Part shown: positions 3,436-49,397 of the stretch, in pieces
How the letters are laid out: every line of letters begins with the position of its first letter
Position numbering within the stretch: the first letter of the stretch is position 1
DNA from: Nemertoderma westbladi
Taxonomy: Eukaryota; Animalia; Xenacoelomorpha
Assembly: GCA_032718475.1 (NCBI GenBank)
Contig: JAUCBJ010000055.1
Coordinates: 62,001 to 126,000, forward strand
Direction: 5' to 3'
DNA length: 64,000 bases
Made by a program: the position numbers and the translations under genes
Notes under the pieces: model-generated
The model's input: only the letters and a program-made list of their open reading frames with translations
Database searches by the model: none
Told to the model about the DNA's origin: nothing

Positions 3436-3496
3436 GTAATACAATCACCAGCTACCCGCTGGTGATTGTTTTACTAACTGCTAGAAAGAAAGAGAG

Positions 3497-13804: not shown

Positions 13805-13858
13805 ACTATAATCATAATCATCTGGATCTATGGGTTGGTAGGTTTCTGAAGGTTGTAT

Positions 13859-21967: not shown

Positions 21968-21972
21968 GTCTC

Positions 21973-22516
21973 TGTTAGCTTATTCAATCCCGCTAACACC
22001 CCATAAAGTTATAAGCCGATAAGCAATATTGGGAGCCACGAGATTGGGTAATTAGCCAACTCGTGCCATCCCAATAAGAATGGGAAGGAAACACACAACG
22101 AGGGTCAGGGGCCAAACCCCTAACCCAGAGAGAATAGGTGGAGTGAACGGGAACACTCCAAAGGGCGCCAACAAGGGTATCAACCAATCAGAGGGGGAAA
22201 GGCATCGATTAGGTAGAGTAACAAGGCCAACCGTGCAATATAGCCACTTGGCAGTAATCATATCAATTCAGTTATCTCAGTGCAATACCGGTGCTAGATT
22301 AGGTTACATAGTTTAGCTAGGGAAGGACCGGGACTTTAGTTACCGTATCCCGCCTTCCGTATACGACAATATTATCTCATATCTATATCTATATCTATAT
22401 CTGCATACCCGAATATTATATACGACAAACAGCACAAACTCATTCACTCTTTATACACGGCGGGGACGCGTGAACTAACAACGGATAAACCGGGATCCCT
22501 CTTGGATCCCGTCACA
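21973..22516 (+). repeat. 5' LTR of element C
   Basis: Direct repeat of 30799-31343. Confidence 0.96.
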
Positions 22517-22588
22517 GTAACTAAACCAGAGCTGCCGCCCTAGCTAACTAGACTCAGCAACCACCAGCCACCAACCTGCAGAAGAGAG

Positions 22589-25500
22589 ATGAGTCGGTCA
22601 GGTGACACGACACCGACGCGGACCCCGGACGAAGAGCTAACGATCCGCGAGGCCGCGACCAGGCGGTATAGGCCCACGACACCGGAGCCATCGATAAGGG
22701 GCGACCCGGAAGTTCAAGATGAGGGGGACCGTCTGGAGTCAGAAGCTGAGTCGAGAGGAGGGGGAATCGAGTTGGAGGATAGAGAGAACGAGCTCGAGGG
22801 TGAAGGAGACGGGTCGACACGGGACAGGGGTCGACGCACCAGTGTCGCCGGCCAGCCACAGGCCGAGGGCGACGAGCGGCCCACCGAAACGGCGACGGTG
22901 GGGCCGACGGTGCGGCGCCGGACGCGGAGAAACGGAGGAGAAATCGGTACCGATGTCGCCGGCCAGCCACAGGCCGAGGGCGACGGACGGCCCACCGGAA
23001 CGGCGACGGTGGGGCCGCCGGTACGACGTCGAACCAGGAGAGACGGACGAGAGGTCGGCGACGAGGACGTCGGGGTTTCTGAGCGACTTCGACGGGCCTA
23101 CAACGCGACCCGGAGACTACTAGAGGAGGCCAGAAAGGGGAAAGCGATAGACGAGAAGGGTTGCCGAGGAACTGTATGACTCATGGCGGCATGGGGGTAT
23201 ACAACCTAGTGTAGTGTACATAGGGCCATATTTAATCGATGCCCGGGGTATAAAATTAGTGGGTTGGAACAGACCTGAGGAGGGCGAATCCGAGGCGGAC
23301 CCCGCGGTTTTGGTCTCGTCGGTCGGAGGGAGTTCCGGGAGGAGGGGGAAAGTTAGTAGATCGGGAAGGCGGAGGGAATCCTTCACAACCGATAAGTCTG
23401 CTACATCCTCCGCGAAAGAAAGACGGGTGAGAGAGATAGTCGCTAGGTACCGTCTCAATCTAGCAGTGCAAGGTAATAGATAAGTAGGTAGACGGCTAGA
23501 GGAAGGGAGAGTGCTGCTAGAGAGGGAAATGGTGTCGATTGGAGAGATAAGAGAGAGGGCCGAAAGGGCCGTGAGGAGCCTTAGGGAGTATGATGAAATA
23601 GAGTTGAAGGAACAAGAGGAGCGTGTGGCGAGAGAGAAAAGCGAACGCGAGAAGCGTGAAGCGAGGGAGGAAAGTGAACGCAGAGAGCGTGAAGCGAGGG
23701 AGGAGAGTGAGCGTAGAGAGCGTGAGGCGAGGCAAAGGGAGGGGATTAGGAGAGAGATGGAATTGGCCGAGCAGAGCGAATGGGAGGCTATGGATAAAAT
23801 AGCAAAAGTGGAGCGTGAGCGGAAAGAATTGGAGAAACAGCGAGACAAACTCGTAGAGTATGAAGCCGTACACACGCGTGAGGTGGAACTGGCGCAGATG
23901 GGGGCGTCTGAGAGCGAGGCTGGCTCGAGTATTTTTGAGGAGCCGGGGGCCGTGGATACATTTATTAATGCCCCACTTGCGGGGACCGCACGACAGACCC
24001 AAGACTGGTGTGACCGTGCTGGCCGGGGGGGGGGGTAATAATGATAATGGTACAGTAGACGTGGTTAATATTAATAGTACCGTATGGGATAATTCTAATC
24101 AATCCTTTATTGCAGGAAATACTTTGCCTAGTGATAGTAATTTAAATTTAAATCAGAACAACCCTAATATTAACGTAGAAAATAATTCTAATATTAATGT
24201 AGCTAGACAAAATAATCAAAATAATCAAAATAATAACCCAAATTCGAACCTACAAAATAATTTAAGTAACGCAATTACACAAAATAATCCAAATAATTTA
24301 AATAATGATCCGAGCCCGAATTTACAAAATAATTCAGATAGTGTAGTCGCGCAAAGTAATTCAAATGATTTTATTTCGAACGAACAAATTAATTCCGTTT
24401 CCAATATGAGTGCTATTAACGTAAACACGTCGGGCGTGTATAGCCAGACAGACGGGGGCCTGGTAGGCCACGTAGTTGGTAGGCAGGGAGTGGCTGGGTT
24501 AGGTAGACCCAGTGAGGGCCTGGTAGGTCACGTAGTTGGTAGGCAGGGAGTGGCTGGGTTGAATAGACCCAGCGAGGGCCTGGTAGGCCACACAGTTGGT
24601 AGGCAGGGAGTAGCTGGGTTAGGTAGACCCAGCGAGGGCCTGGTAGGCCACGTAGTTGGTAGGCAGGGAGTGGCTGGGTTGAATAGACCCAGCGAGGGCC
24701 TGGTAGGCCACATAGTTGGTTTGGCAGGGAGTAGAGGGCCTGGTAGGCCACGCAATAGCAGAGGGAGAGGCGGGGGTGAATAGACCCGACCGTGGTAGGG
24801 TTGATGTGTCGACTGGAGAGGGATATAGTAGAGGGGTGAGGAGTAGCGAAGTTAGATGTGGCGAGTGGGGGGGGGGGGGGGGGCTACGAGAACCCCACAA
24901 CAGCGAGTTAGCGGCGAAAGGGGGGGGCAGAGAGTGTCCCACAGCCGTCAGCGGATAATGCGCGGACCGAAATAGGTAAACCGCAACAACCGGCGACGGA
25001 AAGTAATAGGGGGATTGCGAGTATCCCCAGCGGCGTGCGACCGAGCAGAGAGAGACAGGTTGACATCGTAAGAGGGCGGACGAAGCGTCGAGCCCGATCA
25101 GAAGAGGGAAGAAGAACAGTGGGGTTTAACCGGGAGGTCGACGAGAGATCTCACGAGCGGGAATACTCCACTGAAAGGAGAAGAAGAGAAGACAGTAGTA
25201 GAGGTATCGCCGCGAACGATAGAAGAGCGAGGACGGATAGCGAGCCGTCGGTAGTTGAGATGAGAACGGAGAGTCAGTGGGGTCGGACTCCGGGAGATTG
25301 CCGTCGCCCCGGAGAGATGCGACCCGGCGAGGCGCACTACGCGCCGATGGAGGGGTACGCGATGTACCGGTACAAAGACGAGAACAGTAGAGGGGGGGGT
25401 CGAAGAGAAACTTTCCGACGGAATACACCTATCGATCGAGAATACGGTAGCCGCGGGGAGGATTATTCGAGAAGAATAAACTTCGATCCCGAGCGACACA

Positions 25501-25808
25501 TGCAGACTGTAGGACATACTGTAGGCCTTACTGCACATACCATAGGCCATACTGAGAGAGGCAATGTAGGCGATAGGATGGCGTGGACAACGGGATTAAA
25601 CCCGGAAGTCGCGGAATACATACCGGCGAGTAGGCCAGAAGCTGATAGGCCTATACCGGTACCAGCACTGCAGTATGACTACAGCATGCAGGGACATAAC
25701 ATATACCCAGGGGAGGGGGGAATTATTGCGGATAGGTGTATGGGCCCCAACATATTAACATCAACCCCAGTACCAAACATACCGGTGGGGGGGGGGGGGA
25801 CAGGGTGA
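22589..25808 (+). pseudogene. gag: Element C gag N-terminal region, broken by stops and poly-G frameshifts
   Basis: Homologous to the gag starts of A and B, with a coiled-coil, an Asn-rich tract and 60-bp repeats at 24455-24750. Confidence 0.78.
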
Positions 25809-25866
25809 CATTCCCCCATCACAATATCAACAATATACCCCGATAGGAGCAAGAACAACGAGACCC

Positions 25867-28503
25867 TTGGATGAGAATAGGTCGTGTGATACAGAAATAT
25901 GGAGGGGGCCGCTACCCCCGATGACATACCCAAGTCAGAGAAAGTCAAGAAATAGGACGGACGAGCCGCACCAGACAGGAGAAACTATGCAGCACCCATC
26001 GAATCCATTGGAAGCGCAGGCGATGGGGATGGCCACGTTGATCGATGCGTTGAAAACGAGGATCGAGTTACCACCCGTGGAACCATTCAAATTCGATGGG
26101 AGCAGGCCGGAAGAATATCTACAGTTTCGGCGCATGTATAGTAACGAAATACTAACAAAGAACTTGACGCAGGCGGAGTGCCTAAAGTATCTGCAAGTAT
26201 ACACGGGAGGCCCAGCATACGACATCGTGAGGCAATATCAAGGAATAGAGGGCGGCTTCACGACAGCATGGAGGGCACTGGATAGGGAATACGGGCACCC
26301 GGCCAAGATCATCAGACAGACACTGAGAGGCATAACATCGGGTGGCCTACAGGATAATCCCGTTAGCATTAAGACGTTTGCTAACAAAGTCGAAAAGGCG
26401 CTGATCGTGCTGAAGACGCTAGACGCGCCATACGAGCTCAATGCGTCCAATAACATCACCACGATAGCGCAGGCACTACCGAGTTGGATGCGCAACAAGT
26501 GGAGGAAAATTGCTTTCTCCACTCGAGAAAAGAAGGGTGCGGAACCGGGTTTAGAAGAAATGTCAAACTTCTTAAACTACGAGGCTGAGATAATAACTGA
26601 CCCAGTCTACAGCGAAGATAGCCTGGGAAAGGGACCGAAGACGGATTACCATAGACCGAAACCAGAGCACAATACATCAAACGCATTACCGAGGCTCAGG
26701 CAATCATTGCCATATGCAGCGACGCAGGGGACTGCAAGTCCACAGCTAGCCGAAGATGAGACAACACCATGGAACGGACAGGGGAACAATAACAGCACGA
26801 ATAAACATAACCCCAGTACGTCCAGTAGGCTGAATCCAAACAATAAGAATAGTAGGGACTTTGGTACGAACGCAACTGCGATACGCAATGCGCTGTATAA
26901 AGAGGGCTACGACCCAAAGAGCAAATGCCAGCTACATGCAAATGCGCTTCATCAAACCATGAACTGCAGGTACTGGCAGGCGCTACCTAGGCAAGATCAG
27001 ATAGATTATGCGTTGAGCAATAATATCTGCTCGCGATGTGTAATGAGTGGACATAGAGCAAGGGAGTGCAAGGAGAAGCCGATAAAATTTGGTCAGAGAA
27101 GAGGCCAAACGATGGCGACGAGCACAGTAGGAGCGAAGAAGAGAGGAACGGTGCTACTTGGAGTAGTACCCGTGCGAGTGATTGGGGAAGGCAATCGATC
27201 AGTAACAACGCTAATGCTGGTTGATAGTGGAGCTGCCTTCACATTAGTTGAGGAATGGGTGGCCGAAGAGATAGGATTGAGAACGAGGCCAAGCAGAATG
27301 GCGGTAACAACCATATCTAGCAAAGATGAGATCCTGGAGATGAGAACAGGAAGGTGCGCAATTGCAGCAGTGGCACCAGGATGCGACTATGGGGCAACCA
27401 TCGACCCCATCCAAGTGATAGAGTCAATTAATATCAATGCCAGGCGGCCAACCAACATCGAGGTCAAGCAGTATAAATTTCTGGACGACATTGACTTCTC
27501 AATCCCAGACGTGGACGTTAGGAAGGTATCCATCATAGTAGGGATGGACTGCCCAACGGCCCACGAAAGAATGCAAACGGTCTTCGGCGAAGACAAGCAG
27601 TGTGACCCGGTGGCGATATTAACACCATTCGGGTGGACACTGACAGGCCCAATTAAGAGTAATATACCATTCCATGCGTCTGAGAGTTCAGGATGCATGG
27701 TGCCAGGAACTGTCGATGAGATAGAGGAGAGGCCAGAGATGGGCAATAGTGGTAGACAGCTAGAAGTGGAAGCAACACCACGAGAGTGGGCGGAGGAGAA
27801 TGGCATGGATGCAGAAGATCTAGAGACGATGGGTTGGAACAAGAGTCCCAGCAAGAATCGGTATGGAGATGGAGAGGAGCGGACGGCAAAATGTCCGGGG
27901 GACAGGCCGGAGGAGTGTCCGGAAGAGATGCCGGTCCGGTTGGGAGGCATGCCGACAAGGGGGAGGCCGAGCAGGAGGACTAAATGGAAAGGGAGAAGAC
28001 TTGAGACGATCAGACCAGGGGCAGAGAAGCCAGTGGGTGGGCGTGTGATGGACAAAGGATCCGGGAAAGTAGGAGGCGTGCTGCATACGCACGCGGGACT
28101 GACAGAGTGTGAGGGGGCATTACATGGGCAGAGACCGTGTATACCGAAGGACGAACGGGGGTCGTCGAGGCCTTTAATGCCAGCACACATATTAAGGGGG
28201 AGGCCAGCAGAGGTGGCATCTAAGATTAAGGAGAAGAACAGGGGCGGCATTATACCGCCGGGTGACACGTTGAAGGGTGGCACTTTGCCGCCAAGGGACG
28301 ACCACGAGATCAGAAACATAAATAGCAGACAGCATTTCCAAAAACAGGAGAAAAGACCACCTATCGAATTGACAAGGAGAGCGGAGCGAAGAATTAGAGA
28401 ACCTATAGGGGGGCAGTGGGAGAGTTGCCTGCTGGAGGAATCACCCCTTGGGTCGCTGAGTTGTCCAAAAGGTTGGACTGGGATGGAAGAGTTAGATCCG
28501 TAA
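25867..28503 (+). CDS. gag: Element C gag core, zinc knuckles and aspartic protease, fused to scrambled pol remnants
   Basis: PFKFDGS..EYLQF (BEL gag core), CQLH..H..NC, CSRCVMSGHRAREC, MLVDSGA, TPFGW. No YVDD motif. Confidence 0.88.
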   Translation: MDENRSCDTEIWRGPLPPMTYPSQRKSRNRTDEPHQTGETMQHPSNPLEAQAMGMATLIDALKTRIELPPVEPFKFDGSRPEEYLQFRRMYSNEILTKNLTQAECLKYLQVYTGGPAYDIVRQYQGIEGGFTTAWRALDREYGHPAKIIRQTLRGITSGGLQDNPVSIKTFANKVEKALIVLKTLDAPYELNASNNITTIAQALPSWMRNKWRKIAFSTREKKGAEPGLEEMSNFLNYEAEIITDPVYSEDSLGKGPKTDYHRPKPEHNTSNALPRLRQSLPYAATQGTASPQLAEDETTPWNGQGNNNSTNKHNPSTSSRLNPNNKNSRDFGTNATAIRNALYKEGYDPKSKCQLHANALHQTMNCRYWQALPRQDQIDYALSNNICSRCVMSGHRARECKEKPIKFGQRRGQTMATSTVGAKKRGTVLLGVVPVRVIGEGNRSVTTLMLVDSGAAFTLVEEWVAEEIGLRTRPSRMAVTTISSKDEILEMRTGRCAIAAVAPGCDYGATIDPIQVIESININARRPTNIEVKQYKFLDDIDFSIPDVDVRKVSIIVGMDCPTAHERMQTVFGEDKQCDPVAILTPFGWTLTGPIKSNIPFHASESSGCMVPGTVDEIEERPEMGNSGRQLEVEATPREWAEENGMDAEDLETMGWNKSPSKNRYGDGEERTAKCPGDRPEECPEEMPVRLGGMPTRGRPSRRTKWKGRRLETIRPGAEKPVGGRVMDKGSGKVGGVLHTHAGLTECEGALHGQRPCIPKDERGSSRPLMPAHILRGRPAEVASKIKEKNRGGIIPPGDTLKGGTLPPRDDHEIRNINSRQHFQKQEKRPPIELTRRAERRIREPIGGQWESCLLEESPLGSLSCPKGWTGMEELDP

Positions 28504-28704
28504 AAGGTGCGGGCAGAAGTGTTACCTGTCTGCTAGAAGGAGCACCTTAACTTGGAGTTAGAGTAGAGTTTAGTCGTCCAAGATTTGGACTGAGGGGGGT
28601 GGGATTGAGGGCGAGACGCCCTTCCCACACAAATAAAATAAAAATAAAATAAAAATAATAAGTACACAGTAGGTACGCAGTTAGTAGGCAGAAGTTAGTT
28701 AAGA

Positions 28705-29240
28705 GGTACGTAATACCTAGTTAGTTAGTTAGATAGGAGGTACGTAGTACCGATAGTTAGTTAGAGAGTTAGAGGGTACGTAAGTACCGATAGTTAGTTA
28801 GAGAGTTAGAGGGTACGTAAGTACCGCTAGTTAGTTAGAGAGTTAGAGGGTACGTAAGTACCGCTAGTTAGTTAGAGAGTTAGAGGGTACGTAAGTACCG
28901 TTAGTTAGTTAGAGAGTTAGAGGGTACGTAAGTACCGTTAGTTAGTTAGAGAGTTAGAGGGTACGTAGTACCGTTAGAGAAGAGTTAGAGTTAGGGTACG
29001 TAGTACCGTTAGTTAGAGAAGAGTTAGAGGGTACGTAGTACCGTTAGTTAGAGGAGAGTTAGAGGGTACGTAGTACCATTAGAGAAGAGTTAGAGTTAGG
29101 GTACGTAGTACCGTTAGTTAGAGAAGAGTTAGAGGGTACGTAGTACCGTTAGTTAGAGGAGAGTTAGAGGGTACGTAGTACCGTTAGTTAGAGAAGAGTT
29201 AGAGTTAGAGGGTACGTAGTACCGTTAGTTAGAGAGAGAG
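28705..29240 (+). repeat. Tandem array (~30-35-bp unit with palindromic core GGTACGTAGTACC) in C
   Basis: About 15 copies by eye. The homologous array lies at 34100-34580 (-) in B. Confidence 0.92.
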
Positions 29241-29548
29241 AGTAAGAGGTAGAAGGGTATATAAGATATAGATATTAGTTAGCAGTTAGTAGCGTTAGTA
29301 GCGAGAGGAGGGCATATGAGTACAGCTGGGTAAATTGTGTGGCCACACGACGCACACTGCTGTACTGCATAGGCCCACAGAGTAGGCCAGAATGTGGATT
29401 AGGGAATAGAATAATCAATAGGAAGCAGTAAGGTAGTAGGATTGAAATTAAATCAAAAATAAAATTAGAATAAGAATAGGGCTAAGAAGGGGAACAAATT
29501 ATGGTAACAGTAGTAAGAATAGGCAATAACTCAGAAATTCAGAAAGAG

Positions 29549-30089
29549 ATAGGCCATCGAACTGAACTTAAACCACCTAAGCCCATCACTCATCACGTTT
29601 GCGCCTTGGCAAGGCACCACCTACAGGTGAGCGATCGGGCAGAGTTCGAGATGGCAGGTAAACTTGTGAGAGAGAAGAGAAGCAGAGGAGAGGGAGGAGG
29701 AAGCTAGGGCGCAGAGCTACGGCTTTGAGGAATAAGCAGCCTTAGACGAACTTCGTTGGGCTTCGTCAGGGAGTTCGGGGGAGTCTCTAGGGAAAGAACT
29801 GGGGTGGACGGTGGGATCACCGAAACAGTCGACGTCGGGATTGCAAGCAATGAAGATGATCTTATGGGACGCCACCAGAGGGAGACAACCGGGCCACTCT
29901 GAGGGGCCACCTGCGAAACGGTATCGGGCACTAATAACACCAGCGCCCAAGGAGCCAACAACCGGAATCAGCAGGGAGGTGGCGGCGAGAGTCCGAAAGC
30001 AGAAAGCGGATCCCAGAGGAGCGGTGGTGACCAAGAAACGACCCAGGGAAGAGGACGCCAGGGGGAACTATCCTCAGAGGAACAGATAG
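29549..30089 (+). pseudogene. Internally deleted remnant of the accessory ORF in C
   Basis: CALARHHL matches the B ORF 33387-33716. It then jumps to sequence matching B ~45690-45850 and ~46810-47040. Confidence 0.75.
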
Positions 30090-30798
30090 GTTCCCAGGGC
30101 CGGGGGAGAGAAACTGGGACTTGGACGTGGTACGCCTGGAAGGCGCCGCGTGGGACGTACGAACTATTAAGTACAAATCTAATTAATGCAAATAATCACA
30201 TAAGTGCAATTTGTATGTACGTACGTAGTGATTAGTAATCTAGAATATATACGCTCGAAGTAAGTACTATAGTCATACAACCTTTCTCAATTAGCTACTG
30301 GGACTGGGGGGTAAACTGACTATGGCACTATGGACGAGACACCAGACAATTTCACACTTCTTGAGTGCGACGGCACGAGAGGGGGGGAGATTTGTCAGAA
30401 GAGATGAGGTAGTCAGAGTGGGATTGAGGGACGGAGTAATGGAGCGAAGTGCAGAGGGAGTGCGGACGCAATTCTAGTGTGTGGGGGAGGAGAATAAGAG
30501 GCTGAGTGAGGGACGAGGAGGTCCGAGTGTATGAGAGTGTTAGGATGAGAGTGAAGAAGAGATAGGGCGGAAGTGTTGGGGAAACAAAAGTTGCGTGAGA
30601 GGTGAGCGCGATCGGCCCGACATGAGACGCCAGGCACACAGGGTAGCGTTATCATACCCATAGGGGGTGGCCTGGAAAGCCGGCTCCGAGAGAAAAGAAT
30701 TCCACCCCACACCCGATACTAGATCGGGATCCAGCGGGATTGTAGCGCACTTTTTGGTTGATGCTATCTTCTTACCGGGAAGATAGCATGGGGGGGAG

Positions 30799-31343
30799 TG
30801 TTAGCTTATTCAATCCCGCTAACACCACATAAAGTTATAAGCCGATAAGCAATATTGGGAGCCACGAGATTGGGTAATTAGCCAACTCGTGCCATCCCAA
30901 TAAGAATGGGAAGGAAACACACAACGAGGGTCAGGGGCCAAACCCCTAACCCAGAGAGAATAGGTGGAGTGAACGAGAACACTCCAAAGGGCGCCAACAA
31001 GGGTATCAACCAATCAGAGGGGGGAAAGGCATCGATTAGGTAGAGTAACAAGGCCAACCGTGCAATATAGCCACTTGGCAGTAATCATATCAATTCAGTT
31101 ATCTCAGTGCAATACCGGTGCTAGATTAGGTTACATAGTTTAGCTAGGGAAGGACCAGGACTTTAGTTACCGTATCCCGCCTTCCGTATACGACAATATT
31201 ATCTCATATCTATATCTATATCTATATCTGCATACCCGAATATTATATACGACAAACAGCACAAACTCATTCACTCTTTATACACGGCGGGGATGCGTGA
31301 ACTAACAACGGATAAACCGGGATCCCTCTTGGATCCCGTCACA
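30799..31343 (+). repeat. 3' LTR of element C
   Basis: Follows the hairpin and PPT; followed by TSD GTCTC. Confidence 0.96.
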
Positions 31344-33390: not shown

Positions 33391-33716
33391 TTACCTTGAC
33401 TTTCAGAATGGGTGATGACGTTGCTCTTGGCGGTGTAAACTTGTCCCCGCTGTTTGTGCACCTCCCTGAAATGGTCTTGTAGCGCTCGCGCTCCGTGACC
33501 TCTCTCTAATTGCTCGTAGTATCCCCTCGTCTTCTCTTCCGGATGCCTCTTGGTGAAATCCACCAGTATCTCCTTTCCTCCTAACTCCGCCTTTCTCTTC
33601 CTGATCAGTTTTCCCACCATTCCGAACTCTCTCACTCGCTCACCTGTAAGGTGGTGCCTTGCCAAGGCGCAGTACAGATGAGTGATAAGTTTAAGATGGT
33701 CTGTGCAGTTCGACAA
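33391..33716 (-). pseudogene. N-terminus of the element B accessory ORF, cut by the inversion breakpoint
   Basis: Lies after B pol and the tandem array, matches C at 29549, and joins 44823 via GTAA. Confidence 0.7.
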
Positions 33717-34731: not shown

Positions 34732-37700
34732 TTAAGGTGCTCCCTCTAGAAGACAGCACTTCCCTACAGCCCTCCTATAGGTTTTATTGTCTTTCGCACC
34801 TATCTTGCCACCTATCCACACTTCTACCGATCGGACTCTTCCATCCTCATCGGAGTAAGTGCCCACAACTCTCACCAACCGCCATTGGTTGTTGATGATG
34901 GTATCGTCAGTGACGATCACAAGATCACCCTTCTTTAGCTCTCTATTCGTGTTCCTCCACTTACTTCTTCTATGTAGTGTGGGCAGATATTCCTCGACCC
35001 ACCTCTTCCAGTACTCTGCGCTTATCGCCTTAGCAACTTTCCAACTCTGTCGGGAGTGTATATCGTCTGGGTCTACACCCCGCATGTCGATTGTCGCTGG
35101 CCTTTCCATTAGAAAGTTACTGGGCGTCAGCACGTCTAATGACTCAGGGTCATCATTTTCTAGATATAGCGGTCTGCTATTAATGATACCCTCACACTTC
35201 GCTAGTACTGTCCTTAGTACGTCCTCCATAACCATGTGGGTGTTCATCAACTTCGTCATCAGACGCTTGGAAATCCTATCCCACTTCACCTGTTGTCTTC
35301 TCATGGCTGCCCTGACTTCTTCCCCTTCCAGGATATCCAAGGCCTCTGCCATCTTGTTCTCCGCCCCCACAAAGTTGGTCCCATTGTCAGAATATATTAC
35401 TGTGATCGTACCACCTTTGCGGTCTCTAAACCTTTCTAGAGCATTAATGAATGCTGATGCGGTTGCATCCTGGGCGAGTTCTATCCCTACCGCCCGCGTG
35501 TTGTTACATACGAATATAATGCTGTAGCGTTTCTCAGTGTGTCGCATCACCTTAAACTTTATTGGCCCGAACATATCCACACCGCAATGCGTAAATGGCG
35601 GGTCATGTTGCCTTACCCTACTCGCCGGTAGTGGTGCCATCTCCTGTATGGCTCGCTCCTTCTTTGCTCATCGGCAGGTCTGGCACTGCCCCACTACCGC
35701 CTTTACCTTCTTCCTCAGCTGTTTGACCCAAAAGGTCCTCCGTATCTCCGTGAGGGTTCGGTTGGTACCCCCGTGCAATATCGACTTGTGGGAGTCCCAT
35801 ATAATCTGATGGACTATCGGCGATCCAGTAGGTATGATGATGGGCTTTGGCGGTATTACAATACTGTTGTTATTCAGTACCCTAGAGTTCATTACTAGGA
35901 TCCCGTCATCATTAAGTTGTGGTGATAGCGTGATCAGCTCGCTGTCCCGTCGGAGATGCTGTTGTTTACTGACGCGTTCCACCTCGTCGCCGTAGTTCTT
36001 TCTCTGCTTGTAGCAGATGATTGCCTTGGCCGCTCCTTCCAGATCGATGGTTGTCCTGATTTTTACGTCCTTGCCGACTCCCTTGAGGAAATCCCCAAAG
36101 GCTCTCCAGTAAGCCACTAACTTCTTGGTCTTGTACCAACTAGAGCTGTAGCTAAAGAGTTTGTCCATTGGGTTATCGCACAGTTCTTCCGGTTTCGGTT
36201 GCACGTCCCTTATCTCCCTCACCATTTGACTATATATCTCCTCACCTTCTGAATCTACTCCCTCCTCCTCTAATGCTACTTGTTCTGCGCCCGGGTCCAT
36301 TGGCGGCCAGGCCTCCTTATTGTTCAGAAACTGTGGCCCGTGTTGCCACAATACTTCCTTTTTTAAGAAAGTGTGGCGTGCCACGCTCCTTGATAACAAG
36401 TCCGCTGGGTTCTCGACCGTTGGGCAGTAGTGCCACCTTTCTAGCTCTGTGGTCGCCCTTCTTTCGTCTACCCTATTTGCGACGAATATAGGGTATCTCG
36501 TCCTTTCGTTATGTGGCCAACCAAGCACTACCATGGAATCCGTCCAGTAGTGTGTCTCCACTATGTTGGGAATAGCGTCCATTAAGTAGACTGTGGCCCA
36601 AACTCCTAGCCTCGCAGCTGTCAATTCGAGTTTGGGAACCAACGCTGAATCTGGTGGTGTCGACTTTGCCTTGCTGAAGGCGAGCCTGGGCTTGTGTGCC
36701 CCCTATCGTTGTACTAAATAGAGTGCCGCTCCGTATGCCTCTAATGACGCATCGGAGAACATGTGCAGATCCAGATTCGTCATGTCCCCATCCGGGAAAT
36801 ACACTTGTGGCATGCTGTATGTTCCCATCTGCTCCAAACTCTCTGTCCATTTACACCACTGTTTCCAGATCTCTTCTGGTACCTCTGCGTCCCACTCGTC
36901 CTTCAATTTGTACACTCTTTTGAGTATCTGTTTTCCTGTGACTAGTAATGGGGATGCTAGGCCTAGGAGATCGTATATCCTCGCTATATACGACACATAG
37001 CCCCTTTTCGTGTGGATGTCTGCGCCCTCCTGGCTTAATTGGTACTTCAGCTCGTCTGTCTCTTTGTTCCACACGATCCCCAGTGCCTTCTGTTGGGACT
37101 CTAAACGTTTGGTCGCCATGTCCTGCCCCTTGGCTGTCGTGGGATTATCCATGGTCGATCCTGGCTTCTCAAGTTTTATCGCCTCGATAAATTCCTCCAA
37201 ACTGGATTGGAATTTGGTTAGGTTAAAGCCGGATCCTTTAAGGATGTCGCGAACCTCGCGCCCTGTGTCCAGTAGCCCCTTAACCATCTTCCCAGACTCC
37301 ATCCCGTCATCTACGTAGAAGCCGCGTTGAATCATATCCACGGCCCTAGCACTGTATTTATCTTCCTTCCCCTCTACTGTATCTCTCACGGCTATAGTCG
37401 TCGTAAACGAAGACGACTTGGCTCCCATATTCTGTACTACCATCTTGTACATCGGTATAGTAGACGGTTCCTCGTCGCCGTCGTACCATAGGAAGCGTTG
37501 GCTGTCTCTATCCTCTTTGTCACACGGCCTTGGTTGAACATGCCTTCTATGTCACAGGTGAAGGCGTGTTTCCCGTTCCTGAATCTAAGTAGGACCTTGA
37601 TCCCTGAGTTGTAGATATTGGGACCCTCCAGCAGATAATAGTTTAGGCATTTGCCGTTTGTTTTAGCCGATGCGTCAACTACCATCCGCAGTTTACCTTT

Positions 37701-40434
37701 CTTTGGGTCTAGAGCCAAAGAGCCTTAGAGCAAAAGAAAGCCTTTCTCGACGTACTTCCTAATCGTCCTGTGGATGTACTCATTCTTCTCGGGGCTCCGT
37801 TTTAGTGTCTGCTTCAACTTACAAAGCCTCGTAAGTACCATCCCTCTATTGTCGGGTAGCAGTAGCTTCGGTAGTTTCCATACCATCCCTATGGTATACC
37901 GCCCCTCGTCGCATCTCATCGACTCCTTTACACTCTGTAGAGCCTGCTCGTCTTCTACCGAGGTTCTGACCCCGGTTTCTTTTAGTCCCTCAAAATCCTG
38001 CCTGAGCAGTCTCTTGAGTTGCTCCTCCGCTCCCTCATCCTCCATATCTTGCATAGTTCCCGCAAACATGTAGCCTGATGTCTCCGACATCCTAAAGGGT
38101 ATTTTACTCTTAATTGGGCCGCTCAGCGTCCACCAGAATGGTGTTAGAATCGCCACCGGGTCACACTGCCTGTCTTTGCCGAAGACCATTTGCATTCTCT
38201 CGTGGGCCGTTGGGCAGTCCATTCCTACTATGATGGATACCTTCCTAACTTCCACCTCTGGGATTGAGAAATTGATACTGTCCAGGAATCTGTATTGTTT
38301 GACCTCGATGTTGGTTGGTTGCCTGGCGTTGAAGTTTATCGATTCTATTACCTGGATTGGGTCGATGGTCGCCCCATAGTCACATCCCGGTGCCACCACT
38401 GCTATCGCGCACCGTCCGGTCCTCATCTCCAGGACCTCATCTCTGCTGGAGATGGTTGTTACTGCCATTCTACTTGGCCTCGTTCTCAATCCTATCTCTT
38501 CGGCCACCCAATTCTCGATTAATGTGAAGGCAGCTCCACTATCGACCAGCATCAGTGTGGTCACTGATCGATTGCCTTCTCCAATCACTCGCACTGGTAC
38601 TACCCCGAGTAGTACCATTCCTCTCTTCTTTGCTCCCACGGTGCTCGTTGCCATTGTCTGACCCTTACTTTGACCGAACTTAAACGGCATTTCCTCGCAT
38701 TGTTTAGCTCTATGTCCACTCATCACACATCGCGAGCAGATTTAATTTATTCTCGCGTACCTGAACTTCTCTGGGTAGCGCTTGCCAGTACCTGCAGTTC
38801 ATGGTCTGATGAAGTGCATTTGTATGTAGTTGGCATTTGCTCTTTGGGTAGTAGCCATCCTTATACAGTGCGTTACGTATAGCAGTTGAGTTAGTACCAA
38901 AGTCCCCACTATTCTTATTGTTTGGGTTTGGCCTACTGGGCGCGCTGGGGTTGTGTTTATTTGTGTTGTTATTTTTCCCCTGTCCGCTCCATGATGTGGT
39001 CTTACCCCTGGCTACCTGTGGACTGGCAGTCCCCTGCATCGCTGCGTATGGCAGTGACTGTCTGAGCTTTGGCAATGCGTTTGACGCGTTGTGTTCTGGT
39101 TTCGGTCTATGGTAATCAGTCTTTGGTCCTTTTCCCAGGCTATCCTCGCTATAGACTGGGTCCGTTATTAGTTCAGCTTAATAGTTTAAGAAGCTCGACA
39201 TCTCTTCTAAACCCGGTTCCGCACCCTTCCTATCTCGAGTGGAGAAAGCGATCTTTGTCCACTTATTGCGCAGCCAAATCGGTTGTGCCTGCGCTATCGT
39301 AGTGATGTTGTTAGACACGTTGAGTTCGTATGGCGCATCCAGTGTCTTTAGTACGATTAGCGCCTTCTCAACTTTGTTAGCAAATGTCTTTATGCTAACA
39401 GGGTTATCCTGTAGGCTACCTGATGTTATGCCTCTCAGGGTTTGCCGGATGATCTTGGCTGGGTGCCCGTATTCCCTGTCTAACGCCCGCCATGCCGTTG
39501 TGAAGCCACCCTCGATTCCCTGGTATTGCCTCACGATGTCATATGCTGGGCCTCCTATATACACTTGTAGATACTTTAGGCACTCCACCTGCGTCAAATT
39601 CTTTGTTAATATTTTATTACTATACATGCGCCGAAACTGTAGGTATTCTTCAGGCCTACTTCCATCGAATTTGAATGGTTCCACGGGTGGTAGCTCGATC
39701 CTGGTTTTTAATGCATCGATTAATGTGGCCATTCCCATTGCTTGCGCTTCCAATGGGTTCAATGGATGCTGTATAGGATGTTCTTGCACCTATTGGGGTA
39801 TATTGTTGATATCGTGATAGGGGAATGTCACCCTGTCCCCCCCCCCCCCCCCCCCCCACCTGTATGTTTGGAACTGGGGTTGATGTTAATATATTGGGGC
39901 CCACGCCTCTATCCGCAATAATTCTCCCCTCCCCTGGGTATATGTTATGTCCCTGCATGCTGTAGTCATACTGCTGTGCTGGTACCGGTATAGGCCTATC
40001 AACTTCTGGCCTACCTGCCGGTATGTACTCCGCGACTTCCGGGTTTAATCCCGTCGTCCGCGCTATCCTATCGCCTACGTTATCTCTCCCAGCATGGCCT
40101 ATAGTATGTGCAGTAAGGCCTACAGTATGTCCTGCAGTCTGTATGTGCCGCTCGGGATCAAAGTTTAATCTTCTCGAATAATCCTCCCCGCGGCTACCAT
40201 AATCTCGATTGGCAGGTATATCCCGTCAGAAAATTTCTCTTCGACCCCCTCCACTACTCTCGTCCTTGTGCCGGTACATTACGTACCCCTCTCTCAGTGC
40301 GTATTGCGCCTTGTCAGGTCGCGTTTCTCCGGGACGACGGCAATCTCCCGAAGTTCGACCCCATTGACTTTCCGTTTCCACCTCGACTACCGACGGCTCT
40401 TTATCCGTCCTCGCTCTCCTGTCGTTCTTGACGA
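34732..40434 (-). pseudogene. pol: Element B gag core and pol (PR, RT, RH, IN), fragmented and inverted relative to its LTRs
   Basis: PFKFDGS, MLVDSGA, RMVVDAS, FYVDD, LHMFSDAS, VPKLEL, ENPAD, HGG..CQTC, GVDMFGP, SDNGTNF. Confidence 0.95.
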
Positions 40435-40640: not shown

Positions 40641-40716
40641 AATTATTTTTTGTGCAGAGTTCAACTCATTTAAATTGACCGCTACAGATTAATTGCATTT
40701 GCTCGAAGTAAGATTA

Positions 40717-40905: not shown

Positions 40906-43290
40906 AAGTAAGATTAACCAATGAGATTGTAGTTATTAGATTGTAACCAATGTCGTGCAAGTTATATATTCGCTGGACCAATAGTTATCTTTAAAAACCT
41001 ATTAGAACTCATAGAACAATCGAGAATTTTCTCGATTGATTGCAGCACAAATTTGCTATAAAAGGGTGCGATTTGTTCATTAGTTATCTCTCAGTTATAT
41101 CTATCTTTATATCTCTCAGTATATCTTCTGTAATAAAGTCAGAATTATCGCTAATCTGCCCTTTTTCTATCTGTTTTACTATGCTTCACCACGGTGAACT
41201 CAACTGAGGGACAGGATGGCTGGCTAGACATTGGGCCACAGCAATGAACGAGAACATCTAAGGAATGTAGACAGGAGACAACCCGCAATATCACTCTTAG
41301 TTATTCGCCCATCGCCTGAAAGGTTAGACAGCGTTCGATGCCTTGCTACCTAAGTATAAGACCAAAGATCGAAGGTAGAGGTAGTGACACGCTGTGCGCC
41401 AAAAATTACTTCTAGGAATTGTACTGTTTTAATTCAGGAAAAAACCGCAGTAGACCTTCATACTCCGGTACAAGGCATACACATTGGTAGGGTGCAGCAA
41501 ACTGTACGCCTAACTCTTGCTAAGTGCAGGTGCGTCTGTGACTATTTGTAGTACAACGGTGTCCATTGCATTAGAACTTGTAGGCCAGGAGGGTTACTGT
41601 GTTTTACCTGAATTAGGATTGTACCGTTCAGGCGGTAGGGCAGTTTACGACTAGGCGCAAATAAATTGAGGCTAATTAGGGATACTAACATCTACCGTGT
41701 CCCCGCCGACATCCTGATAGGAAGTTACCAAGCCCACCTAGGTAACCAAAATTCTAGATAGGACGCCAGGCTAGCTATTAGTAACAGTACGCCTACTGTA
41801 GTAAACTAACATTTCTTCTTAGTATTAGGGACCTGGTAAATTAAATTGCCGAATTCTGGGCGTAGTATTAACCTTATGCCTGAATTTGAGTCCTGGAAAT
41901 ACATGAAAGGGGAAGGAGCCTTATCATTCGTGAGTATTGGACCTACAAGTTACAAAATTAGAATATTTGTAAAATGCACACAGTACCCAGTAATTATATA
42001 TATGAAGGAGCAAAACTGATCTTGATGGTTCAGAATTAACACACGCGAGTTAGAAATTATTACACCTCAAAATATATAAAATTAACTTTTGTCCGTACTG
42101 CGCTTTGCCCGCTAGTTAGGCATCTCCAGATCTCTGCACCTAGCTAGCGTCCTTTTCGCCCAACCATATAAATCACACCGCGGCAAAGTATACGAGCCCC
42201 TTAGTCCGTCAGTGAGTCAGCCTGATTTTAGGATTCGCTGCGCGGGATTTTGTTTTATCGAAGTTTGTCTGTTCGTAGACTGTTTTCTGCCTCACCGGTT
42301 ATAAGAGACCGATACTGCAATATATATTCGCTTACTTGGAGTTTACTGTTTTGGTGAGAAGGTCGGATTTATGATTTGATTCACAAACTCTACAGTAGGA
42401 TATTGCAGGTATTGTTACTGTCTCTTCGAATAATAGGAGTATGTGTATTATTTAACATATTTCCTAGAATAGTAGGAGTATGTTTTACTGAACTACGGTT
42501 CGGTAGGACTAAAGTTATTTAAAAAAAAAAAAATTTTGTATTTTGAAGTAAAAGTTTATATTTGATTAGCTAAGTGCTAATATTTTGAAATAAAATTTGA
42601 TTTGAACCGCGTGTAAAATATTTTGGAATTGAATACCGGTGTTTAAAAAGGGTTTAAATACCATATTGTACCGGTACAAAATTCTCGTAAAAGTAAAACC
42701 TAACTCTTTTGTTTTTCAGGATTCAGAGCTCATTTCTAGACTGTAACGAGAGCAAGACCGTGTTTAGCAAGTTTGGGAGATAGATAACCCAACAACTTTG
42801 GTTGGGAAAATCGCACTTCGTCCGCAACGCTGGAAACGGAACGGTTCACGTCCGGTTTGTATCTGGGAATCTGTTTTTCTGGAGAATCATTGGAGTGGGT
42901 GAGTTCGAAAAGTTGCATAAGTAAGTTAGGCATTACCGTATTAGTTAAAATTATTGTGGGTTCCACTGTCTCAAGTATTTATGCATTCCGTATGATTTCT
43001 TTGTTTATTGCTGAATTAGTCCGTATTATTGTATTTAATTTATATTTTGATAACGTATATCGTTATCCGCTTTATTTGTTATAAAATTGGCCGTTAGGCT
43101 AATTTTATTATATACTTATTCCGTGACATTTATTTGCTGTAAAATTGGCCGTTTAGGCTAATTTTATCCATCTGCTATAAAATCGGCCGGTAGGCTAATT
43201 TTATATGACTGTAACTAGTACCGTTTAGATATAAATACGGTAAATTTGATACTTTGACACTCACATTTTACTTGACTTACAACTACCGAA

Positions 43291-44822
43291 ATGAGTGACA
43301 AGCAAGACTATACGAAGAATACACCTACCGACTATGACTCATGTGACGCGGATAAGTCAGCAGCGGAAGAACTACAGGGGAAGACTCGCGAGCCTACCGA
43401 ACCTACACCGTGTGCGTCACCAGTACATCCAACGGGAGTACCGGATGCCGTAGTACGAGGCGACGGCAGGACCGAGGACTTTCTAACTGTTCCGCAACCT
43501 AGATACAGGGAAACGGACATGGTAAGTTCAGTAGGAAGCCAGGAGAGCGTGGTTAGAAGCGTCGGAGGATACATGGCGCATATTACCAGGAGTATTGGAG
43601 AAGGCCAATGCATATTAGACGAGTTGACCACTCCGATGTCTCGGTTTGAGTTCTACACCCTCCAGGTTAGAGTACAAAGTAGAGTACATAAGTCCGTAGA
43701 TAACCTTATCAGTCTACAAGATCTAGCTAGACAGAGACAGGACGTGGATACTCAACTTAGAATCCTCGAGAAACTAATGATCGCTAGAGCGAAACTGATT
43801 CAGTTTAAGTCGACGATTAGGCAGATACAACAGGAACAAGCGGACCAGTTGTTAGGTGAGTCAGTTTCGGACGAATTATTGCAACCCGAGGAAGAACAGG
43901 AACTGTATAGGCTGGATGGACAATTGAAACACCTGACGGATCATTTACGCATGTACGGCGAAGACGTCGGCGATTTGGAAACCGTGCCGGAATATACGAG
44001 GGAAACTTCACCCGTACAAATCGAATCGGCACCGGGAATACTGGACCAATCGTTAGTGAGTATTCGCAGCGAAATTGATGAGGTAAGTATAGTGACGTCA
44101 GAAATTTCCAGACAGCAACAACAGCACTATAGACAACAACGGGAAATTGAGGAACAAACTCAACTGTTGACGGTACAAGCGGCGGTAGAAGAAGAAAAAC
44201 TACGCATTGCAAATGTCGCGAGAATCTCTCATCTGCAAGAACAAGCCGAGTTGGAAGCAGCTGAGATGGAAAGGTTGGAGCTAGAAATAGCACAGCGAAC
44301 AGCTGAGTTAGCGCAACAAGCGGCAACAGCTGAGTTGGAACGACAAGCGGCAGCGGCTGCGCAACAAGCAGCAGCAGCGGAGTTAGAGCGACGAGCAGCG
44401 GAGTTGGAAGAACATAAGCGAGTTTCCGAAGCAAGAGCCGAGATGAAAAAACGGCAAATAAAGGCTCAATCAGCTATACGACAAGCGGAGTTCGAGGCGC
44501 AACAACAACAGACGGAACAACGCGAGAAAGAAGTTAAACTTTATTTCGAACTCGAGAAGAAGGCGAGAGAATTAGCCAACGCGAAGGAAGATCTAGATCT
44601 ACAAGCCCGCGATCGATCGATGAGATCTCGAGACGGACACGATTTAGACTGGTTAGAGGTAAGACACCGCCAAATTCAGGAACGAATGAATGAAGGAAGT
44701 GTAGGGGCACCTGGGCGAGAAAGACAATTAGTTAAAGACTTATGTCAAAGATTCCCTCAAGTAACTCCTATGTTTGCACCGATTACGACTAAGGAAACTG
44801 TTTCGATTGCTGGTAGTAGTAA
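43291..44822 (+). CDS. gag: Element D gag, N-terminal coiled-coil portion
   Basis: ATG ORF downstream of the D 5' LTR, Q/E/A coiled-coil, joining the 33361 ORF in frame across the breakpoint. Confidence 0.85.
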
Positions 44823-46942
44823 TATTTCTCCTATCCATGGTGCGACGGAACACAGGTTTTCGGGACCTACGGGACACTGTCGCTGGACAACGCAATCTTC
44901 GAGCATTTCCACTACGTGGTGAAAGGAGATGAGGCAAAGTTCAGAATTTCGAAGTACGCGAGAGAGCCACCAAAGAAAGATTGGAAGAGGTTCGTAGAGT
45001 CCGTCAGCAGGGAAGGATACATGATCCTAGACGACGAAGGAACCGTGGAAGACGAGGAGGGTTAGACGATGCGGTTTGCGACGATGCGGAAAGAATCATC
45101 GGTCCGGACACCCCCAATCTTCTGGACATGCAGACGGTCTTCATGGCTATGACAGCACCAGACGGGTTGGGACTAGTCGAGAACACAGGCCATTGTGGAG
45201 CGGTGGCGATGGGCCAGCTATTGGGACTTGTGTGTCACAAAACAATGGACTGGGGGAAGTTCAGAGAAGAGTACGGAGCAGAGTTAGCAAACTCGCTGAA
45301 GTGGGGAGCAAGGCCAGGGAAACAAGAGGTGTATCAATTCCGGAGAGGAGCAATAAAGGTATATCAGAAGCGATATATCCTGCAGGAGGACTGGATAATG
45401 ATGGGTTTGCTAAATCTATTCATGACCGTCATCATTGGGAAGGAACCAACGGCATTCCTGCTATCGGGATCACCCCTGAGCTACAGAAGCGCCTTTAAAA
45501 CGGCTTTCGAGGGTCTGGTAGACCACCCGGGGCTGAAGAGCAAGTCGGTGTACTACAATAGCCGACATCTGGTAGACAGGGACGTAGATACGCCATATCA
45601 GAGATGGGAGCCGCTAGAGGTGGATAGACGAGAAGCAAAGCGATTGGAAGAAATCGCTAGACAGGAGAGGAGAGAAGCAGAGGAAAGGGAGGAGGAAGCT
45701 AGGGCACAGAGCTACGGCTTCGAGGAACAGGTGGCCTTAGACAAACTTTGCTGGACATCGTCAGGGAGTTCGGGGGAGTCTCTAGGGCGAGAACTAGGAT
45801 GGACGGTGGGATCACCGAAAGAGTTGACATCGGGATCGCAGGCGATGCCCATAACAGCGGGCGCTGAGGGCGATCACCGCTGAGGAGGCTAGGAGAGTTA
45901 GAGGGGTGGAGAGTCATGGGCGAGAGCCAAGGTGGGAAGGGACACAGTGGGTCCACCAGGATACCAGGGTTGGAGCCACTCCCAGAGAAGGACGAGGATG
46001 ACGACGAATTCGGAGAGATGCCGCCCATCGCAAGGATAGGCCACTCGGACACGGACTGGGTTGGCAGGAGGGTGGTGACGGCCAGTGGGGCGAGGGCCTT
46101 CTGGGACAGACCCGGCAAGCGGGCCTGGGTGCATGAGGAGCCGGCGATGGATTTCGCAGGGAGCACTATCAGGTTGGGCGAGCAACCGGGAACGGCACCA
46201 CGGGTAATATTCGGGGAGACGATGCCTGGGAGGGGCGAGGAGATCAACATAGACAGGGACGCTAACATTCAGAAATTCGCTTACCAGCGACTCCACAGAC
46301 CGCGGTGATTGCTTGGGACAAAAGACGACGTGGGGCAGGAGACATTGGTGCTCGGCTGTGATTACTGTGGGAGACAGACCCACCAGGAAAGGAGCTGTCT
46401 GTACCGGTTCCAGAAAGTTGTTGTCTAGTTGTCTCTACTGCCGCGAGTCAAGCCACAGGATGGGGGCGTGTCCACAGTTGCACAACCGATGTTTGAAGTG
46501 TAACTTTCGGGGGCAGTACGGGTGCCAGTGCGACTGGATGGACGACGAAGAGAAGTTTAGAATCTTTGAGGAGTGGGCCAACGTCAGTGCCATGACACGG
46601 CAACATATGAAGGCCCAGGAGTTCCGGTGGGGCTCCTTTAACATCAATCAGGAGGTCCACACGGAGGCTTCCGTTTACCTACCAGGAAGTGGCGACGGCA
46701 GCGTCGTATGCCGGAGTGATAAATACGCAGAGGTATTTGGACAGGTGGACGCCATAGAACAGAGAAGAGTTCAGGGATTTCTTGGCGGAGCATGTGCCGC
46801 GGGCGATGAAAGTGATCCTATGGACGCCACCAGGGGGAGACAACAGGGCCACTCGGAGGGGCCACCCGTGAAGCAATACCGGGAGCTAATAACACCAGCG
46901 CCCAAGGAGTCGACAATCGACGAGTCCTTAGTGAAGAGGTGA
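44823..46942 (+). pseudogene. Element B accessory gene (exonuclease-like domain and three zinc knuckles), frameshifted and partly deleted
   Basis: WKRFVESVSREGYMILDDEG (44982-45041); LLDMQTVF..CGAVAMGQLLGLVCHK; CDYCGRQTHQERSC (46357), CLYCRESSHRMGAC, CLKCNFRGQYGCQC, FEEWA. Confidence 0.75.
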
Positions 46943-47761
46943 CGGCGAGGGTCAGGAGCCTGAAAGCAGACAAGACCAAAGGAGCGACGGTGACCAGGAA
47001 ACGACCAAGGGAGAAGGACGACAGAGGGAAAGAGTTAAGGTGGTTCCCAAAGGCAGGCGGAACGAACTAGAGTTCGATGTGACATGCCTGGAAGGCACCA
47101 CGCGAGACGTGCAAACTCCTAAATACAAATTCATGTAATCTAAATAATTGAAAAGTGCAATTAGCATGTACGTACGTAGTAATCATTATTAGTTTAGCAA
47201 GTAAATACAATCGAAGTAAGTACTATAGTCATACAACCTTTTCTCGATTAGCTACTGGGACTGGGGACCAATAGACTATAATACTATCACGGAAGAGACA
47301 CTGGACGACATCACACTTCTTGAGTGCGACGGCACAGGAGGGGGGTGAAGCTCGTCGGGAGTGAGTGGGTGAGATAGGGGTTGAGTTGTAGTGCGGAGAG
47401 AGTGCGGGTGCAATTCAAGTGTGGGGGGAGAGGAATAAGAGGCTGAGTGAGGGACAGGGAAGTCCGAGAGTTAGAGCGGAAGTAAGAAGGAGTAGAGGAG
47501 AGTCAGAATGAGAACAGAGTGGAGTTAGAGTGGCGAAAGTGTTGGGGAAACAAAGGTCGTGTGAGAGGAGCGCACGATCGGCCCGGCACGGGGCGCCAGA
47601 TAAACAGGGTAGCGATATCATACCCATAGGGAGCGGCCTGGAAAGCAGGCTCCGAAAAAATAATTCCACCCCACTCCCGATACTAGATCGGGATCCAGCG
47701 GAATTGTAGCGCACTAGAGGTGGATGCTATCTTCTCACCGGGAAGATAGCATGGGGGGGAG

Positions 47762-48331
47762 TGTTAGCGTATTCAATTCCGCTAGCCAAGCCCACACAAA
47801 GTTAGCTTTCAAGCAATATTGGGAGCACGAGGTTGGTTACCAATCAACCTCGTGTCACCCCAATAAGCGGGGACAACAGGCCCCAAAGGGAACACACACA
47901 CAACGGGGGTCAGAGGTTACACCTCCGGGAGAGAGAGAGACAACAGCAGCAGGGGGAAACACTCCCAGGGAGATGGGAGGGTGAGAAGTGAGTTATTAGC
48001 CAATAGGGGGAAGGCATCGGCTGAGTAACGCAATATGGCCAACCGGTGCAATATATTACCAGCTACCATGTCATTCACTTCAGTTATCTCATTCAGTTAG
48101 TCGGTTCAGTTAGGGCAGAGCGGTGACTTCTAATACCGTCCGCTGCCGCCATCATTCATTTATATTTTATATCCTATTAATTCAATACTGCAATAACTGT
48201 GTCTGTTCTTATCCTATTATATTTATACTGCTACAGCGTCAACAATATCAGAACTCTTAATCCGACAATAAACCCTTTTCAATCACATGGCGGGGACGCG
48301 TAAATAAAAGAACCGGGATAAATTGGGAACA
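47762..48331 (+). repeat. 3' LTR of element B (terminal hairpin partly deleted)
   Basis: Matches 6888-7472, ends in ACA, then TSD AGAGT. Confidence 0.93.
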
Positions 48332-48809
48332 AGAGTTAGAGTAGTAAGAGAGTTAGATAGTAGGTAGTTAGTAAGCTAGAGAGTTAGAAGATAGTAGGTA
48401 GTTAGTAAGTTAGAGAGTTAGATAGTATGATAGCACAGGGGTAGCATTAGAGATTAGGGCCTTAGGGAGTGGCAGAGAGTAGAGAGGAGATAGTGAGAGG
48501 AGCTGTTGGCAAGAGAGAAGTTAGAGTGCGATTCAGGTGTGGGGAGTTAGAGCGGAGTTCGACTGGAGAAGTTAGAGCGGAGTTAGAGTTATAGTGGAGA
48601 GCTTTTAAAATTGTGTGAGAGTCCACAATTGGCTCGACACAAGACGTCAGACTGGGTAGCATTATCATACCCATAGGGAGCGGCATGGAAAGCCGACTCC
48701 AAGAAAATAACTCCACCCCACACCCGATAGTAGATCGAGTTCCAGCGGAATTGAAGCGCACTTAGAGGTTGATGCTATCTTCTCACCGGGAAGATAGCAT
48801 GGGGGGAAG

Positions 48810-49397
48810 TGTGAGCGTATTCAATTCTGCCTCACCAACCCCCATAAAGTGGGAAAGAGCGCCTTTAAGCAATATTGGGGAGTACGAGGTTGATTAACAA
48901 CCAACCTCGTATCACCCACAATAAACGGGGACGACAAACCCCAGAGGGCCTCACACAATGGAGGTCAGAGGTTAAGCCTCCGGGGAGAAGGAAAGTAACA
49001 GCAGCGGGGGGGGGGAGGGGAACACCCCCGCAGAGCTGAAAGCGAGAAGTAGGGTATCAGCCAATGGGGGGACAGGAGAGGCATCAGCTAGGTAATAGGG
49101 CCAACATAGCAGTATATTACCGGTTGGTGTTTCTCATTTGTGCAGTTTAGTTAGTCAGCTACCGGTCTTAGTGTAGAAGGAGAACATTGTTTTACCGTTG
49201 CCACTGGTATGTCATTCAATAGTTATCTCATGTATTCAACTTGTTCAACCAGCTTATGCTATTATACAACGCTGTCACACATTAACTCTTATATTATTAT
49301 ACCTACATCATATATAACATCCTACAGTCCTATACCAGCTTGACGACACGTACGAAACAATTACTCCGGTCGGGATTGATCCGTCGATCCCGTCACA
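48810..49397 (+). repeat. 3' LTR of element A
   Basis: Matches 2861-3435, followed by TSD GTCCT. Confidence 0.95.

Follow-up and report, generated by a model that had tools for sequence, protein, structure and literature searches.

Two families of LTR retrotransposons, B and D, lie within a 64,000-nt stretch of Nemertoderma westbladi DNA (contig JAUCBJ010000055.1, positions 62,001 to 126,000; hereafter the window), and each carries a third gene, ORF3, a real, selected and probably homologous accessory gene of the known enzymatic-ORF3 type. To judge from the literature searched, what is new here is the occurrence of an ORF3 combining DEDDy-type exonuclease and knuckle motifs in BEL/Pao elements, together with its purifying selection in family B and its presence in very distant families.

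By self-comparison and Pfam, the window consists of eukaryotic transposons nested in one another: D sits within the gag of one family-B copy (B2) and a second family-B copy (B1) sits within the gag of D (self-comparison). Judged by their domains, B and D are BEL/Pao LTR retrotransposons with the order PR-RT-RH-IN; Peptidase_A17 and DUF5641 exceed the Pfam cut-off in both, and DUF1759 is found in both gags. The superfamily includes Bel, Pao, Tas, Suzu and Sinbad, with Flow and Dan likewise counted in it. Identity between B and D is 29-32% for the pol proteins and, over short blocks, 22-25% for the gags. BEL/Pao is described as a metazoan group (PMC3118150), from which an animal host would be likely.

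B2 begins with a 5´ LTR at 6888 (6888-7454, self-comparison), has its gag-pol at 34732..40225 on the minus strand (protease, Peptidase_A17, integrase and DUF5641, by Pfam), and ends with a polypurine tract and 3´ LTR at 47750..48328 on the plus strand, with TG at 47762; this LTR is 97% identical to the one at 6888-7454 and lacks its 3´ end. The internally deleted copy B1 (21973..31343, plus strand) has LTRs that are 99% identical, TG..CA ends, a polypurine tract and a 5-bp target duplication. D pol (Peptidase_A17, Integrase_H2C2 and DUF5641) occupies 16991..21979 on the minus strand, with three internal stops in 1663 codons, and the N-terminal part of D gag (43276..44859, plus strand) lies downstream of a D terminal repeat at 40439-42433 and abuts the B ORF3; the boundaries of the D termini are not cleanly resolved. 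This gag N-terminus, rich in Q, E and A, is predicted to form a long coiled coil and matched no Pfam family. Because the two halves of D gag are on opposite strands, D-gag contigs exit the window at 44859 and the B1 ORF3 is collinear, we infer that a segment of about 11 kb, from ~33.45-33.5 kb to 44859, is inverted, splitting both D gag and the B ORF3. The B1 ORF3 start at 29651 matches 33620 on the minus strand and is collinear with pieces that correspond to 45665-45847 and 46803-47867. No exact inverted repeat longer than 10 nt was found at the inversion breakpoints, and the three-level nesting (6888-48328) with its inferred inversion could be genuine or an assembly join.

The remainder of the window holds further mobile elements. 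More B-related LTRs and gag fragments, at 2861-6500 and 48607-49399, belong to a second subfamily whose LTRs are 94% identical to each other and ~70% to those of B2. A THAP/P-element-like transposase frame of 826 codons is open at 58905-61385 (minus strand), and non-LTR elements at 49393-53024 and 342-1865 (both minus strand) comprise an endonuclease-RT frame of 874 codons, another RT piece and a frame with Cys-rich and endonuclease parts. Related gypsy-like integrase fragments at 56365-57507 and 62727-63752 (plus strand) are 93-98% identical in DNA.

The ORF3 of family B lies between integrase and the polypurine tract and LTR in both copies. In B2 its main part (44860..46942, plus strand) is broken and comprises an exonuclease-like domain, an acidic linker, three knuckles and a tail; its likely 5´ end, at 33441..33620 on the minus strand, matches the start of the B1 ORF at 29651 and would have been displaced by the inferred inversion. 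B1 retains the ORF3 start and pieces of the linker and tail, in order, from the end of integrase to the 3´ LTR. The initial annotation had placed the gene at 44823..46942, which stands from 44860 onwards, but 44823-44859 is assigned to D gag because 44859 is where the D-gag contigs depart from the window, and the ORF3 start is at 33620 on the minus strand. That this ORF3 might be part of the abutting D gag was rejected. Between the integrase stop and the ORF3 start, both B copies have arrays of 35-44 nt tandem units (28680-29260 and 34050-34590), and D has an AT-rich repeat stretch past ORF3 (12100-12600); these are possible ORF3 expression or splice signals.

All of the B motifs quoted in the initial annotation were found (WKRF..ILDDEG at 44982-45041, LLDMQTVF at 45119-45142, KFREEYG at 45257-45277, CLKCN at 46490, FEEWA at 46565 and WG at ~46628), spread over pieces and not in one open frame. 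The helix and Exo I motif (D-x-E) at 44982..45041 aligns to D and is in register with 38 bacterial DEDDy domains. An Exo II remnant and a middle block ending in LKW (45071..45307) and an Exo III-like Y-x-x-x-E-x-W (45374..45394) were placed by alignment, the former not being significant alone. The single knuckle that had been quoted is present, but B has three CCHC-type knuckles, like D (46357..46531, with starts at 46357, 46430 and 46490; in this copy the last one lacks its His). They are followed by a tail, F-x-E-W ... W-G-x-F, at 46565..46639, with counterparts in D and in P0002, the outside homologue described below; all of these features are on the plus strand. The lesions of the B2 copy are an internal deletion at 45063-45071, a frame change at ~45850-45990, a stop at 46306-46308 and a frameshift at ~46420. 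At 45063/45071, where 14, 7 and 7 contigs show loose ends, other copies have extra sequence; they have neither the stop at 46306-46308 nor the frameshift at ~46420.

The ORF3 of D runs over 1241 codons at 12605..16330 on the minus strand, starting 661 nt past the integrase stop, with no transmembrane-strength segment and one in-frame stop, a TGA at 13861-13859 between the exonuclease and knuckle parts that may be a mutation private to this copy or a site of programmed read-through. One stop in 1241 codons, against three in 1663 for D pol, is as expected if both frames were open until insertion. The exonuclease core is at 14318..14926 (Exo I 14926-14909, Exo II 14674-14642, Exo III 14335-14318) and three CCHC knuckles, placed by Pfam and motif positions, are at 13556..13735, all on the minus strand. 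The exonuclease domain itself is uninterrupted in this copy, which makes the role of retroelement-borne DEDDy domains directly testable. About 450-470 residues N-terminal to the exonuclease (14970-16330, minus strand) were matchless in all searches; the corresponding region in B and P0002 is ~100 residues or fewer.

With D as query, phmmer gave three matches among 1.84 billion proteins: the gag knuckle proteins P0001 and P0003 and a 558-residue protein from an ENA record, P0002 (E 7.8e-6), the sole outside homologue in that scan. P0002 has the same order as D, exonuclease-linker-triple knuckle-tail; the two are ~31% identical and both keep the Tyr and each of the four acidic positions, and with Cys/His masked none of 100 shuffles reached their score (z 9.1). 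P0002 is a closer match to D than B is. Word-based protein searches gave no relatives of D, only P0002 itself for P0002, and none among longer proteins for the B piece, and no ORF3 relatives were found in metagenome, viral or GTDB contigs or in plasmids, with two chance matches in phages. An env-like ORF3 was rejected because no hydrophobic segment exceeds KD 1.43 (maximum 19-residue hydropathy of 1.3-1.4 in D, the B piece and P0002), and there was no fusogen-type Pfam match.

From the sequence comparisons, we consider it highly likely that the B and D ORF3s are homologous. The D counterparts quoted in the initial annotation occupy 14968-13415 on the minus strand and follow the order seen in B, and the reported lack of DNA similarity was borne out (best blastn E 0.99). 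Against shuffled controls, the proposed protein alignment held for the Exo I block, the tail and the whole chain, but not for the middle block alone, and was marginal for the chain with Cys/His masked. The Exo I block was matched by 0/1000 shuffles against all of D, 2/2000 against the D exonuclease part and 0/200 against a D+P0002 profile (P=4e-5), and the tail past the knuckles gave moderate support (26/2000). The whole collinear chain scored above all of 100 window-shuffles (z 4.8), and the knuckle piece above all of 1000; this knuckle match is generic, because unrelated gag knuckles outscore B with the same profile (P0001 43.6 bits, P0003 30.8, B 18.8).

The opposing reading, in which the two genes are separate captures or resemble each other by chance in one short block plus generic knuckles, seems very improbable to us. 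It draws on the middle block, which falls in the expected register in its best alignment and is not significant alone (604/1000 shuffles against all of D, 217/2000 and 47/200 in the other comparisons; hhalign P=0.29), on the masked chain (5/100, z 1.8), which is close to a B-gag control (7/100), and on the masked comparison of B with P0002, whose score was reached by 8/100 shuffles. Against it stand the Exo I block, with P values from ~1e-3 to 4e-5, the tail, and a Fisher combination of the three non-knuckle blocks (p=2e-4, over windows picked after the fact). Our preference for homology rests on these Exo I and tail statistics together with the order, the element position, the knuckle triplet and, in the alignment, an LKW insertion and a Glu at Exo III that B and D have in common.

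The initial annotation had called this an exonuclease-knuckle gene, and profile comparison, Atlas, MAFFT and column shuffles indicate that it is likely a DEDDy-type exonuclease-knuckle fusion. DEDDy was tested as a single hypothesis against bacterial PF01612 domains, with 40 of 173 PF01612 matches hand-picked as reference rows so that three classes were represented (L152 did not survive trimming, and L141 was left out of alignment A4). A profile of P0002, D and B matched 38 bacterial PF01612 domains over Exo I-II (P=1.7e-5, probability 79%) and 10 EXD2-like domains with Exo I-III in register (P=0.006). Column shuffles reached the score in 0/100 cases for the profile, 1/100 for D alone, 2/100 for the B Exo I piece and 28/100 for the B Exo II-III piece, which alone gave no DEDDy signal (P=0.78). 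In an unguided MAFFT alignment, the D, E, D, Y and E of family D land in invariant or near-invariant catalytic columns. In Atlas, 24 of 30 matches to D were in PF01612 clusters (best 0.91, with 153/256 features shared, at a noise level where shuffled proteins reach 0.9 in 4-10/100), and the matches to the B piece were to unrelated families only.

A D+P0002 profile had a sole match in the PDB, EXD2, at E=1.2; with B included (A5), Lon protease ranked above EXD2, and when D or P0002 was compared singly with PDB sequences no nuclease came up. Single-sequence HMM scores against DEDDy profiles were near noise (up to 2.9 bits), and PF01612 had no match in Pfam at E<=1 for the B pieces, D or P0002. 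Because ORF3 escapes Pfam, it would be overlooked in repeat annotation. A structure model without borrowed rows was unusable (pLDDT 30). One built with 29 bacterial DEDDy rows, and hence circular, reached pLDDT 63 and had EXD2 at the top in Foldseek, along with other DEDDy proteins (Z up to 13.4, rmsd 3.6, 173 aligned); to that extent, the model is compatible with a DnaQ-like fold.

At the level of motifs, Exo I D-x-E is present in B, D and P0002, and the Exo II Asp is in its K-x-G context in D and P0002, B keeping an Asp-bearing remnant whose context was lost to the deletion at 45063-45071. The Exo III Tyr is in register in all three; the acidic residue is Asp in P0002 and Glu in B and D, a replacement that may lower activity. 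We are confident of a DEDDy fold in D and P0002, and regard one in B as quite probable. Catalytic activity is somewhat favoured.

Family B also gives evidence of selection. Contigs matching 43200-47300 numbered 6441, 4704 and 3794 in three DNA runs from two studies; they range from under 90% to over 99% alike and cover all 30 bins, at a depth that is not a copy number. Because thousands of diverged contigs cover the stretch, the B ORF3 is a regular part of a diverse family. One contig carries a second organism label (X5) at a depth of 4.45; it covers 45285-45570 and has 40 differences, 35 of them listed. Third codon positions hold 26 of these 35, first positions six and second positions three (p=9e-7); X1 shares 33 of the 35, and the Exo III stretch at 45353-45396 contains none of those listed. 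The initial annotation's view that the gene is selected is thus upheld for the B frame, which is under purifying selection by these third-position differences. Its view that this is no one-off capture is likewise upheld, by two families with 29-32% pol identity, thousands of contigs, a second organism label and P0002.

The further proposal of an old accessory module of a BEL clade fared less evenly: the gene is accessory, selected and present in two families, but vertical inheritance within one BEL clade is plausible rather than proven, given that P0002 matches D more closely than B does and that modules are known to be exchanged. ORF exchange between retroelement types has been reported (PMC5408684). 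We lean slightly towards descent from an old shared BEL ancestor, with swapping of ORF3 between elements as a plausible alternative to inheritance.

What might such a protein do? There is, in our judgement, an even chance that in both families the sense-strand third gene encodes a DEDDy-type 3´-5´ exonuclease with three nucleocapsid-like knuckles that acts on the element's own RNA or 3´ ends. The protein would be made from a separate or spliced message, its gag-like knuckles would bind single-stranded nucleic acid, including the element's own RNA, and the DEDDy domain would trim 3´ ends while particles assemble or DNA is reverse-transcribed. The best matches to the knuckles are those of retroelement gags (P0001, P0003), and there is a weak match to HIV nucleocapsid (E 0.18). 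Because the knuckles resemble nucleocapsid, we favour as substrate the RNA of the element itself or its nascent cDNA within the particle, an assignment that, given activity or binding, we hold tentatively and at somewhat less than even. A more sweeping scenario is possible, and we would call it doubtful: an old BEL/Pao lineage may have swapped env for an active DEDDy exonuclease and a captured knuckle triplet, selected across families with ~30% pol identity, which would make this either the first nuclease of an LTR retroelement with a proofreading or end-trimming role or an element-encoded destroyer of host piRNAs.

Counter-defence is the main rival to action on the element's own RNA and is, in our view, unlikely. 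Here the exonuclease-knuckle protein would trim or destroy host piRNAs, siRNAs or RNA triggers, relieving silencing of the element. The nearest cellular kin, taken from a structure list that the model biases, include small-RNA pathway enzymes (Nibbler/mut-7 and EXD1), a silencing role has been raised (PMC5408684), an arenavirus ExoN is reported to suppress host innate signalling (10.1101/2021.02.01.429129), and families B and D both appear abundant from contig matches. Nucleocapsid-like knuckles, on the other hand, suit the element's own RNA. The protein could also be a non-catalytic RNA-binding adaptor that localises or packages element RNA, of which EXD1 and Egalitarian are examples. The Exo III change from Asp to Glu in B and D would fit such an adaptor, as would the long insertions and 470-residue N-terminal extension of D; the retention of the four acidic positions and Tyr in D and P0002 despite their divergence, and of B Exo III codons without a listed difference from the second-organism contig, make it decidedly improbable.

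In comparison with cellular PF01612 DEDDy proteins (EXD2, WRN-exo, Nibbler/mut-7, RNase D and NrnC), the ORF3 proteins have the same helix, Exo I D-x-E and LQI strand, followed in order by Exo II L-x-D-x-x-x-x-K-x-G-x5-D (in D and P0002) and Exo III Y-x3-D/E. They differ in being element-encoded, knuckle-fused and under all Pfam thresholds, with 9-17% identity and with insertions past the LQI strand and ahead of Exo III. The env-type ORF3s of BEL/Pao elements, such as roo and the mosquito elements with Chuviridae-like glycoproteins, occupy the same place, from integrase to the 3´ LTR (PMC13524379, PMC3118150), whereas the genes described here have nuclease and knuckle motifs instead of a transmembrane segment. 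In the parts available of these two papers, env is the only ORF3 described and the word exonuclease is absent (PMC3118150, PMC13524379). A transposon-borne DEDDy domain is also found in Dada DNA transposases, where it has been proposed to process 3´ ends (PMC3706591); there it is inserted in the DDE transposase of a DNA transposon, whereas here it is in a separate retroelement ORF (PMC3706591). Reviews repeat the rotifer and Dada cases (PMC6431247, PMC5718144, PMC6338049). Among the papers listed in the literature searches (the top listings for the broad ones), we found no BEL/Pao exonuclease or DEDDy-knuckle fusion; Repbase, Dfam and subscription papers could hold such elements.

The host elements are BEL/Pao here, as against Juno and Vesta, which are gypsy-like, in rotifers. 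Enzymatic ORF3s in LTR retrotransposons have so far come mainly from rotifers, where their selection and function are unclear (PMC5408684); DEDDy-like ORF3s were described there in the bdelloid Juno and Vesta LTR elements and are shared with Terminons (PMC5408684). As in the elements described here, the Juno, Vesta and Terminon ORF3 is a separate sense ORF downstream of pol, of DEDDy type, with an altered acidic tetrad and no transmembrane segment (PMC5408684). The tetrad is D-E-D-E here and DEED in rotifers. A fusion with three CCHC knuckles and a conserved tail also sets the ORF3 described here apart from the rotifer ORF3s as they are described in the parts of that paper available to us (PMC5408684). 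Finally, ORF3 is under purifying selection in family B, in contrast to the rotifer ORF3s, for which no clear departure from neutrality is reported in the same parts (PMC5408684).
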